Positions 1,805 to 6,580 of a stretch of DNA of 6,580 nt are shown here, piece after piece. The translations under genes were made by a program, and so were the position numbers. The notes under the pieces were generated by a model. The model ran no database searches and was not told the origin of the DNA. It was given only the letters and a program-made list of their open reading frames with translations. How positions within the stretch are numbered: the first letter of the stretch is position 1; every line of letters begins with the position of its first letter. Origin of the DNA: a virus (taxonomy: Duplodnaviria > Heunggongvirae > Uroviricota > Caudoviricetes); the IMG/VR virus record IMGVR_UViG_2713896780_000002, one strand, 5' to 3'.

Positions 1805-2080
1805 ATGAACAAAGAAAATGTGATTACCCTGGACAATCCGGTCAAGCGTGGTGAGCAGGTTATCGAACAGGTCACGCTGATGAAACCTAATGCCGGGACG
1901 CTGCGCGGTGTCAGTCTGGCTGCGGTCGCAAACTCCGAAGTCGATGCACTGATTAAAGTGCTGCCTCGCATGACGGCACCGATGCTGACCGAGCAGGAGG
2001 TCGCCGCGCTGGAACTGCCTGACCTTGTGGCGCTGGCCGGTAAGGTGGTCGGTTTTTTGTCGCCGAACTCGGTGCAGTAA
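1805..2080 (+). CDS. E: Tail assembly chaperone (P2 gpE-like)
   Basis: 91-aa ORF (MNKENVITLDNPVKRGEQ...GFLSPNSVQ) lying between the tube and tape-measure genes, the conserved position of the tail chaperone. A T6G slippery run sits near its 3' end. Confidence 0.88.
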   Translation: MNKENVITLDNPVKRGEQVIEQVTLMKPNAGTLRGVSLAAVANSEVDALIKVLPRMTAPMLTEQEVAALELPDLVALAGKVVGFLSPNSVQ

Positions 2081-2232
2081 CGTTCCCGAAAAATCTCTCG
2101 GTCGATGACCTGATGGCGGATGTGGCAGTGATATTTCACTGGCCGCCATCAGAACTGTATCCCATGAGCCTGACCGAACTCATCACATGGCGCGAAAAGG
2201 CGCTCCGGCGAAGCGGAAACACGAATGAGTAA
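1805..2232 (+). CDS. E': Tail assembly chaperone frameshift product (P2 gpE+E'-like), made by a -1 frameshift at 2053-2059
   Basis: My manual translation after the slip, from codon 2059, gives VAELGAVTFPKNLSVDDLMADVAVIFHWPPSELYPMSLTELITWREKALRRSGNTNE, then the stop at 2230-2232. That is 85 aa in the E frame plus 57 aa in the -1 frame, about 142 aa. The -1 frame is open for the full extension and the stop overlaps the T start. This product is not in the ORF track because it requires recoding. Confidence 0.8.
2053..2059 (+). other. Slippery heptamer TTTTTTG for the programmed -1 ribosomal frameshift (E to E+E')
   Basis: In the E frame the codons are GGT TTT TTG (2051-2059). A shift to -1 here opens a reading frame that runs to the TAA at 2230-2232. 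A T6G slip site at the end of E is the established mechanism in the P2 FETUD operon. Confidence 0.8.
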
Positions 2233-4686: not shown

Positions 4687-5166
4687 ATGATGCTCGCGTT
4701 AGGTATGTTTGTTTTTATGCGCCAGACGCTGCCACACCAGACCATGCAGCGTGAATCAGATTATCGCTGGCCGTCAAATTCCCGTATCGGCAAACGGGAT
4801 GCCTTTCAGTTTCTCGGTACGGGTGAGGAAAACATCACGCTTGCCGGTGTGCTTTATCCTGAACTGACCGGCGGAAAGCTGACGATGACCACGCTCAGGC
4901 TGATGGCAGAGGAAGGCCGGGCGTGGCCGTTGCTGGATGGCACCGGCATGATTTACGGCATGTATGTCATCAGCAAGGTGAGTGAAACAGGGAGTATTTT
5001 CTTTGCAGACGGCACACCCCGAAAAATTGATTTTACGCTGTCGCTCACCCGTGTTGATGAATCACTGGCCGCGCTTTATGGCGATATCGGTAAACAGGCG
5101 GAATCGCTCATCGGTAAGGCTGGCAGTATGGCGGCTAAATTCACGGGTATGACGGGGGCGGAATAA
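4687..5166 (+). CDS. U: Tail protein U (P2 gpU-like; Phage_tail_U family)
   Basis: 159-aa ORF (MMLALGMFVFMRQTLPHQT...) with a strong AAGGAGGT Shine-Dalgarno at 4671-4678 overlapping the T stop, 8 nt before the ATG at 4687. A second in-frame ATG lies at 4690. Position between T and D fits gpU. Confidence 0.9.
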   Translation: MMLALGMFVFMRQTLPHQTMQRESDYRWPSNSRIGKRDAFQFLGTGEENITLAGVLYPELTGGKLTMTTLRLMAEEGRAWPLLDGTGMIYGMYVISKVSETGSIFFADGTPRKIDFTLSLTRVDESLAALYGDIGKQAESLIGKAGSMAAKFTGMTGAE

Positions 5167-6329
5167 TGCTGGATGCGCGGACATTTGATGCAGGCAGTAC
5201 GCTGACGCCGGATTACATGCTGATGCTCGACAGCAGGGATATTACCGGCAATATCAGCGACCGTCTGATGAGCATGACTCTGACGGATAACCGGGGCTTT
5301 GAGGCTGACCAGCTTGATATTGAACTGAACGATGCCGACGGGCAGGTCGGACTGCCGGTTCGTGGCGCTGTCCTGACGGTGTATATCGGCTGGAAAGGTT
5401 TTGCCCTGGTATGCAAAGGGAAATTTACCGTTGATGAGGTTGAACACCGGGGCGCGCCGGATGTGGTCACCATCCGCGCCCGGAGTGCAGATTTCCGCGG
5501 GACGCTCAATTCCCGCCGTGAAGGTTCATGGCATGACACCACGCTCGGTGCGATTGTTGAGGCGATAGCCTCCCGTAACAGGCTGGAAGCCAGTGTCGCT
5601 CCGTCACTGGCCGGAATTAAAATCCCGCACATCGACCAGTCGCAGGAGTCTGATGCAAAATTCCTGACCCGCCTTGCTGAACGCAACGGCGGTGAGGTGT
5701 CGGTAAAAATGGGAAAACTGCTGTTTCTCAAAGCGGGGCAGGGGATGACGACCAGCGGTAAAAAAATCCCGCAGATTACCATCACCCGCAGCGACGGCGA
5801 CCGTCATCATTTTGCGATTGCTGACCGTGGAGCCTATACCGGCGTAACGGCAAAGTGGCTTCACACCAAAGACCCGAAGCCGCAAAAGCAGAAGGTAAAA
5901 CTGAAACGCAAAAAGAAAGAGAAACACCTGCGCGCACTGGAGCACCCCAAAGCGAAACCGGTCAGGCAGAAGAAAGCGCCAAAAGTACCGGAAGCGCGCG
6001 AAGGTGAATACATGGCCGGTGAGGCTGACAACGTTTTTGCCCTGACCACGGTATATGCCACGAAAGCACAGGCCATGCGTGCCGCTCAGGCGAAGTGGGA
6101 TAAACTGCAACGGGGCGTTGCGGAGTTCTCCATCAGCCTGGCTACCGGTCGTGCAGATATTTACACGGAAACACCGGTTAAAGTGTCAGGCTTTAAGCGC
6201 GTCATAGACGAGCAGGACTGGACAATCACTAAGGTGACACATTTTCTGAATAATAGCGGCTTCACGACGTCCCTGGAGCTTGAGGTCAGGCTTTCTGATG
6301 TGGAGTACGAAACAGAAGGTGATGAGTGA
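5166..6329 (+). CDS. D: Tail/baseplate hub protein D (P2 gpD-like late control gene D; gp27/VgrG N-terminal-like family)
   Basis: 387-aa ORF whose ATG overlaps the U stop by 1 nt (TAATG at 5164-5168). The translation (MLDARTFDAGSTLTPDYMLMLDSRDITG...) fits the phage GPD family. It carries an internal Lys-rich basic segment and is the last gene of the tail operon before ogr. Confidence 0.9.
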   Translation: MLDARTFDAGSTLTPDYMLMLDSRDITGNISDRLMSMTLTDNRGFEADQLDIELNDADGQVGLPVRGAVLTVYIGWKGFALVCKGKFTVDEVEHRGAPDVVTIRARSADFRGTLNSRREGSWHDTTLGAIVEAIASRNRLEASVAPSLAGIKIPHIDQSQESDAKFLTRLAERNGGEVSVKMGKLLFLKAGQGMTTSGKKIPQITITRSDGDRHHFAIADRGAYTGVTAKWLHTKDPKPQKQKVKLKRKKKEKHLRALEHPKAKPVRQKKAPKVPEAREGEYMAGEADNVFALTTVYATKAQAMRAAQAKWDKLQRGVAEFSISLATGRADIYTETPVKVSGFKRVIDEQDWTITKVTHFLNNSGFTTSLELEVRLSDVEYETEGDE

Positions 6330-6410: not shown

Positions 6411-6580
6411 ATGTTTCATTGTCCTTTATGCCAGCATGCCGCACATGCGCGTACAAGTCGCTATATCACTGACACGACAAAAGAGCGTTATCACCAGTGT
6501 CAGAACGTGAATTGCAGCGCCACGTTCATCACTTATGAGTCGGTACAGAGATACATCGTGAAGCCGGGAGAAGTCCACGC
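6411..6580 (+). CDS. ogr: Late-gene transcriptional activator Ogr (zinc-finger, Ogr/Delta family), 3'-truncated by the window end
   Basis: My manual translation from the ATG at 6411 is MFHCPLCQHAAHARTSRYITDTTKERYHQCQNVNCSATFITYESVQRYIVKPGEVH, 56 codons with no stop before the window ends. It carries the CxxC...CxxxxC four-cysteine zinc-binding arrangement characteristic of Ogr and matches P2 Ogr as I recall it. It is absent from the ORF track because it has no stop codon in the window. Confidence 0.85.
   Translation, partial: MFHCPLCQHAAHARTSRYITDTTKERYHQCQNVNCSATFITYESVQRYIVKPGEVH

Follow-up and report, generated by a model that had tools for sequence, protein, structure and literature searches.

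In this P2-like DNA, a long reading frame in the -1 frame overlaps the end of the tail assembly chaperone gene E, which lies between FII (tail tube) and T (tape measure), and raises the question of how it is expressed. A preliminary description had proposed a programmed -1 frameshift that fuses this frame, E', to E. The analysis of the whole 6,580-nt stretch of DNA, hereafter called the window, and of its relatives indicated that this is very probably the case: to judge from the sequence, a -1 ribosomal frameshift programmed on the heptamer T TTT TTG would produce gpE as the major and gpE+E' as the minor product.

The ORF list of the window showed six co-directional genes on the + strand. They were the FI gene for the tail sheath (27-1217, 396 aa, with a Pfam tail sheath match), the gene for the tail tube, called FII in P2 (1230-1748, 172 aa; PF04985 Phage_tube, 203.6 bits), E (1805-2080, 91 aa, the frame-0 product, recognized from the ORF list and Pfam), the gene for the tape measure protein, called T in P2 (2225-4672, 815 aa; PF10145 PhageMin_Tail, 152.5 bits), the U gene (4687-5166, 159 aa, Pfam GpU match) and the D gene (5166-6329, 387 aa, Pfam GpD match). 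The order FI-FII-E-T-U-D was collinear with that of P2, with E/E' located between FII and T, and the presence of FII upstream of E fixes the canonical gene order of tube, chaperone and tape measure. On these sequence features the window represents the FI-FII-E-T-U-D tail (late) operon of a phage or prophage of the P2-like type (Peduovirus). In the 701 nt that surround the site, identity to 74 Peduovirus records (Escherichia, Yersinia, Salmonella) was 95-99%, and prophages matching the whole window were present in 2169 of 5426 complete E. coli genomes.

Some other features of the operon were observed. The product of FII, although assigned to Phage_tube by Pfam, is named 'head closure' in the RefSeq records NC_001895, NC_001317, NC_004745 and others, which looks like an annotation error. 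The 61-nt intergenic stretch between FII and E had a folding z of -2.3 and contained, at 1756-1776, the inverted repeat CCGGTCAG-N5-CTGACCGG, corresponding to an 8-bp hairpin without a T-tail. The record of phage 186 carries the entry 'tI; partial terminator of pJ transcript' in the equivalent intergenic region between FII and the E homologue, and the hairpin at 1756-1776 may lower the expression of E-T-U-D relative to that of sheath and tube. At the far end, an ORF beginning at ATG 6411 with MFHCPLCQHAAHARTSRY left the window (6411-6580); this is the position of ogr in P2 and of ogrK, the late-gene activator, in E. coli prophages.

The heptamer T TTT TTG was located at 2053-2059 on the + strand and was the sole T6 run on that strand of the window. 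The E frame has T2053 in the third position of a GGT codon and reads GG-T TTT TTG, the X XXY YYZ phase for tandem -1 slippage. The E stop codon, TAA at 2078-2080, began 18 nt (6 codons) after the heptamer; the distance of 21 nt given in the preliminary description holds when counted to the end of the stop codon. The -1 frame was open from 2044, and E (frame 0) and E' (frame -1) overlapped with both frames open for 37 nt (2044-2080). When G2059 was re-read, 57 sense codons followed before the TAA at 2230-2232, giving the E' segment at 2059-2232. The extension ended 8 nt into T, as had been reported, since the ATG of T at 2225 overlapped the end of E' by 8 nt (ATGAGTAA). Translation of join(1805..2059, 2059..2232) on the + strand gave the 142-aa fusion and that of frame 0 the 91-aa E, both of which had been predicted.

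Each of the two frames carried a protein domain of its own. Pfam assigned E to PF10109 Phage_TAC_7 (47 bits, cut-off 25) and the -1 extension to PF06528 Phage_P2_GpE (78.7 bits, cut-off 23), so the similarity of the extension to E' proteins, on which the preliminary description had staked its proposal, was clear. The exact E sequence was found on at least 1000 public contigs, under the name 'phage tail assembly protein'. A PDB sequence search with the E+E' fusion returned no match at E values up to 1, and the fold search gave weak chaperone-like matches only. The arrangement also exceeded what chance would give: the six genes contained three other in-phase XXXYYYZ heptamers, all of which lay mid-gene and were followed by only 14-16 open -1 codons, and the -1 frame was open for at least 57 codons at only 3.2% of positions. 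For one gene, the joint probability of such an open -1 frame and a heptamer in phase within the final 10 codons was roughly estimated at 6e-4.

The stretch 1805-2232 aligned with P2 without gaps, with 11 nucleotide differences in 428 nt. When the fusion was aligned to P2 gpE+E' (NP_046780.1 / UniProt O64312), as the preliminary description had recommended, one residue differed, N29S; gpE was identical to P2 gpE at 90 of 91 residues, and the E' part at all 57. The reconstructed P2 sequence was exactly NP_046780.1 / O64312, 'Tail assembly protein E''. In the P2 record (NC_001895), E+E' is a two-piece CDS with the remark 'shares amino terminus with gpE; -1 frameshift; essential tail protein', and the misc_feature 'site of -1 translational frameshift' corresponded to position 2060 of the window, the base directly after the heptamer. 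The record of Yersinia phage L-413C likewise joins two pieces into the E+E' CDS through a -1 frameshift here. P2 E (NP_046781) and E+E' (NP_046780) share with the window the gene order, TTTTTTG at the same codon, the 37-nt overlap, the 91-aa and 142-aa products and the 8-nt overlap with T. The E stop codon is TAA in the window and TGA in P2, and besides the sequence differences counted above nothing else differs.

PMC3091744 and PMC3931495 state that a single start in P2 gives rise to the 91-aa E and, through the -1 frameshift at TTTTTTG, to the 142-aa E+E'; both cite for this frameshift Christie et al. 2002 (J Bacteriol 184:6522), who described it in the FETUD operon. These papers and PMC5009743 also report that P2 requires the two proteins for tail assembly. 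The parallel with P2 E/E' that had been proposed was thus borne out by the near-identical fusion and by the P2 and L-413C records. The E/E+E' frameshift at this locus is already known and annotated in the P2 reference genome, and the window is another P2-like prophage or phage with the known frameshift, one amino acid away from P2.

The selection acting on the two frames was analyzed with 71 unique P2/186-like sequences in a gapless alignment (76-100% identity), in all of which the heptamer was invariant. Upstream of the overlap (1805-2043), the variable columns were mostly third positions of frame 0 (64 of 105), and synonymous and nonsynonymous changes in this frame stood at 494:49. Downstream (2081-2224), the variable columns were mostly third positions of the -1 frame (25 of 46), and the corresponding counts were 114:24 in frame -1, 15:132 in frame 0 and 2:141 in frame +1. 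A -1-frame stop codon downstream of the site was found in none of the 71 sequences. These results showed that the frame under purifying selection changes at the heptamer, from 0 to -1, and the extension carries the synonymous-site signature that the preliminary description had named as a test.

The conservation of the arrangement extended far beyond the P2/186-like group. A tblastn search with the fusion matched 418 phage records, of which 401 had one place covering at least 80% of the query, and among the matches listed every full-length one fell into two pieces with a frame change, down to approximately 37% identity. For a wider comparison, 194 loci were taken from annotated phage records of 16 lineages and from IMG/VR contigs. 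The IMG/VR contigs were fetched with the frame-0 E part only, and the heptamer and E' played no part in their selection. Distant loci came from three further scans seeded with distant E proteins; a scan with a 7-sequence alignment gave close relatives only. The resulting sample contained 154 unique E..E' sequences, most of them fetched by the E part alone; it is dominated by the P2-like and the Pseudomonas phiCTX-like clades, with about 25 groups below 88% identity represented.

In all 154 sequences, from phages of many bacterial genera, E' occupied the -1 frame and the E/E' overlap contained a slippery heptamer in phase. The heptamer was T6G in 137 of them, T6C in 6, GGGAAAG in 8, and T7, T6A and AAATTTT in one each. 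Phage 186 (orf51/orf52, gene H), the Burkholderia phages KS5, KS14 and KL3, Stenotrophomonas phage Smp131 and the phiCTX-like Pseudomonas phages had a homologous E (33-76% identity in the aligned E part) and a homologous -1 E' with an in-phase slippery heptamer in the overlap (PMC3091744, PMC3931495). The 37-nt length of the overlap was common to P2, L-413C, 186 and YenM_06.16-2. Among the other Peduoviridae, the distance from the heptamer to the E stop varied from 18 to 66 nt, and T7, T6C or T6A took the place of T6G in some.

Two lineages had more divergent heptamers, both in phase and within the overlap. The Mannheimia phage PHL101 lineage (loci L015 and L186-L193) had the lambda-type G GGA AAG in place of T6G, and Xuanwuvirus P88_4B11 had A AAT TTT. 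In these cases the slippery motif has turned over although the gene pair is homologous. In Smp131, an extra small ORF annotated as 'putative membrane protein' (817-954 of that locus) was located between E' and T, and E' did not overlap the tape measure gene, in contrast to the 8-nt overlap in the window. No E' is annotated in Vibrio phage vB_VpaM_MAR (NC_019722) or Mannheimia phage PHL101 (NC_008201); the homologous -1 ORF and the in-phase heptamer were nonetheless present in both.

According to the mechanism that we propose, most ribosomes translating E (1805-2080) would terminate at the TAA at 2078 and yield the 91-aa chaperone gpE. A minority would slip back by one base on T TTT TTG (2053-2059), with the P-site tRNA-Phe and the A-site tRNA-Leu re-pairing on TTT TTT; alternatively, the P-site tRNA-Phe may slip alone while the A site is still unfilled. 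The slipped ribosomes would read the -1 frame for 57 codons to the TAA at 2230 and complete the 142-aa gpE+E', and E' would be translated only as a C-terminal extension of E. Residue 85 at the junction would be Leu if both tRNAs slip, which is the annotated convention (peptide ...VVGFLVAELGAVTFPK), or Phe if the P-site tRNA alone slips or the transcript gains a U (peptide ...VVGFFVAELGAVTFPK). The N-terminal chaperone domain would be common to both products, and E+E' would carry the conserved GpE (E') domain in addition. If the division of labour resembles that of lambda gpG/gpGT, the shared domain may coat or bind the tape measure gpT and the E' extension may recruit the tail tube protein FII, with the ratio of E to E+E' presumably fixed by the frameshift efficiency. 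In the present analysis the mechanism is supported by the anatomy of the sequence, the near-identity to P2 E+E', the family-wide conservation and the frame-specific selection, while the synthesis of two products from one start and its efficiency are taken from the P2 literature. The sequence held nothing that spoke against the frameshift explanation.

The preliminary description had also likened the locus to G/GT of lambda, a likeness that stood for the mechanism and the gene position and failed for sequence homology. In lambda as well, gpG/gpGT is encoded by two overlapping ORFs between the major tail (tube) gene and the tape measure gene, a canonical heptamer shortly before the first ORF ends is the site of the -1 slip, and the fusion is a minor product whose ratio to the short one matters for tail assembly. 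The layout of the lambda G/GT type was indeed found in the window, where the ORFs overlapped and the second one, in the -1 frame, had no start signals of its own. In contrast, a Pfam scan at E values up to 0.01 gave only Phage_TAC_7 and Phage_P2_GpE, with no sign of homology to lambda gpG/gpT. The heptamer also differed, being T TTT TTG here and G GGA AAG in lambda, and P2 is a contractile-tailed myovirus, unlike lambda. For the chaperone frameshift of long-tailed phages, PMC5009743 cites Levin 1993 and Xu, Hendrix and Duda 2004; the efficiency of the P2-like frameshift is given there as 2- to 3-fold that of lambda G/GT.

Another explanation to be weighed was that E' is an independent small gene, which starts from GTG at 2077 or ATG at 2113 and encodes a free peptide of 39 to 51 aa. 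This is how automated annotation routinely treats it: a separate 51-aa 'GpE family phage tail protein' is present in RefSeq E. coli prophages, E' likewise stands alone in many phage records, and about 1000 contigs carry an annotation of precisely the 39-aa peptide that begins at the ATG. The mechanical ORF list of the window also contained only a 39-aa ORF at 2113-2232 in the -1 frame, and the remark that the ORF track had missed the fusion was fair. No start codon preceded ATG 2113 in this frame, and the Pfam GpE domain match began at that same ATG. However, ATG 2113 had essentially no Shine-Dalgarno sequence (anti-SD duplex, -2.9 kcal/mol). The start codon of the RefSeq type was absent here, as the codon at 2077-2079 was GTA instead of GTG because the E stop is TAA. 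Among the 71 loci with P2-like spacing, this codon was GTG in 52, GTA in 17, ATA in one and TTA in one, merely tracking the identity of the E stop (TGA, TAA or TAG). Moreover, the -1 frame was open back to the in-phase heptamer inside E in 154 of 154 relatives, which would be needless for an independently initiated gene. PMC3931495 and PMC3091744 state that E' of P2 has no ribosome binding site of its own, extends upstream into E by 37 nt and is made as E+E' from the E start. Independent initiation of E' was rejected on the grounds of the invariable link to the heptamer, the weak Shine-Dalgarno sequence at ATG 2113 and a start codon that tracks the E stop, and we regard it as very unlikely.

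Transcriptional slippage, in which the 142-aa protein would arise mainly from RNA polymerase adding one U on the T6 run and would carry a G-F-F-V junction, appeared even less probable. A homopolymer run is the substrate of polymerase slippage, the Smp131 lineage has a T7 run, and at 2032-2053 a consensus scan detected a terminator-like site, a weak hairpin that abuts the T-run and could possibly help such slippage. An in-frame 142-aa 'GFFV' protein also exists in E. coli assemblies (RJK13013.1), which suggests either that the +1 T product is at least tolerated or that a sequencing or replication slip is frequent at this site. The G-F-F-V fusions (RJK13013.1, which is P0001, P0033, P0035 and others) occurred on 1-3 contigs each, in a few E. 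coli assemblies; the cluster of the normal 91-aa E had 988 member sequences. These fusions imply a T7 run in the DNA, which may be a genuine +1 T mutation or an error in sequencing the homopolymer.

Several observations spoke against a transcriptional origin. A run of six T is short for efficient slippage by bacterial RNA polymerase, and the window offered neither a longer run nor a stable hairpin upstream of this short one. Four of the eight pairs of the hairpin at 2032-2053 were G-U, and its stability did not exceed that of shuffled sequences (z -0.68). The terminator-like scan returned two overlapping sites against 0.7 expected, and no structure upstream of the heptamer was conserved in 20 lineages. 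The hairpin, or terminator-like site, was rejected as an element of the locus on account of its shuffle-level stability and lack of conservation. The GGGAAAG and AAATTTT of some lineages are canonical X XXY YYZ heptamers and not homopolymers, and the replacement of T6G by such non-homopolymeric heptamers argues for tandem ribosomal slippage. The event in P2 is treated as translational in the literature (PMC3091744, PMC5009743). As for a mere coincidence, in which a T-run near the stop codon and an accidentally open overlapping frame would yield no product, slippery heptamers as short as these do arise by chance, as the three others in the window illustrate, but this explanation has a negligible probability and is already refuted by the low joint chance, the Pfam domain in the -1 frame, the frame-specific purifying selection and the arrangement kept in 154 of 154 relatives.

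The surroundings of the heptamer were also inspected for RNA elements that may stimulate the frameshift. RNAalifold analysis of 21 lineages, covering the heptamer and 60 nt downstream, gave no consensus pairs, which agrees with the report that P2 has no downstream stimulatory structure (PMC3091744). The 101 nt downstream of the heptamer had a folding z of -3.1. A stable hairpin at 2110-2152 within E', beginning 50 nt downstream of the heptamer, had a perfect 10-bp stem (CTGATGGCGG / CCGCCATCAG, 2110-2119/2143-2152) and an inner 6-bp stem (2126-2131/2136-2141). All of its pairs were retained only in P2, 186 and Kp4886-2, which encode an identical LMAD...HWPPSE peptide here; distant lineages retained 4-12 of the 16 pairs. 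Because it is lost from relatives in which this peptide differs, the hairpin was rejected as a family-wide stimulator, and it may have arisen incidentally from conservation of the peptide.

Upstream, the Shine-Dalgarno-like sequence TAAGGTGGT (2041-2049) ended 3-4 nt before the heptamer. In the 18 nt upstream of the heptamer, the anti-SD energy averaged -6.8 kcal/mol, compared with -2.6 kcal/mol for background windows of the same genes, and was -8.9 kcal/mol in the window, although shared descent and the encoded K/E/Q-V-x-G-F-L peptide both confound the average. The Smp131, Vibrio MAR and Xuanwuvirus lineages lacked the element, and it was enriched in many or most of the others. TAAGGTGGT could be a modulator of the frameshift or a mere reflection of the K/E/Q-V codons.

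The dnaX gene of E. coli offers a further bacterial case of a tandem -1 slip on a homopolymeric X XXY YYZ heptamer (A AAA AAG). It has both an upstream Shine-Dalgarno-like element and a downstream hairpin, whereas the window had TAAGGTGGT and no conserved hairpin within 60 nt, and an element of the former kind lies near the heptamer in some P2-type lineages only. The element of dnaX is located about 10 nt before the heptamer, compared with 3-4 nt in the window, and the shift truncates the protein in dnaX and extends it here. It seems unlikely that TAAGGTGGT or the hairpin at 2110-2152, neither of them so far reported as a modulator there, tunes the frameshift efficiency of the enterobacterial P2/186 group, or that U-insertion by RNA polymerase at the T6 run contributes a measurable share of E+E'.

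The practical value of the finding lies in annotation. ORF calling and RefSeq split E' off as a bogus gene of 39 or 51 aa or omit it, and pipelines that rely on the GTG start would miss it in the window. The correct annotation is the joined CDS given above, not a separate small gene. For the biology of these phages the result adds nothing new, as E/E+E' of P2 is a textbook case of the conserved tail-chaperone frameshift and has been described experimentally.
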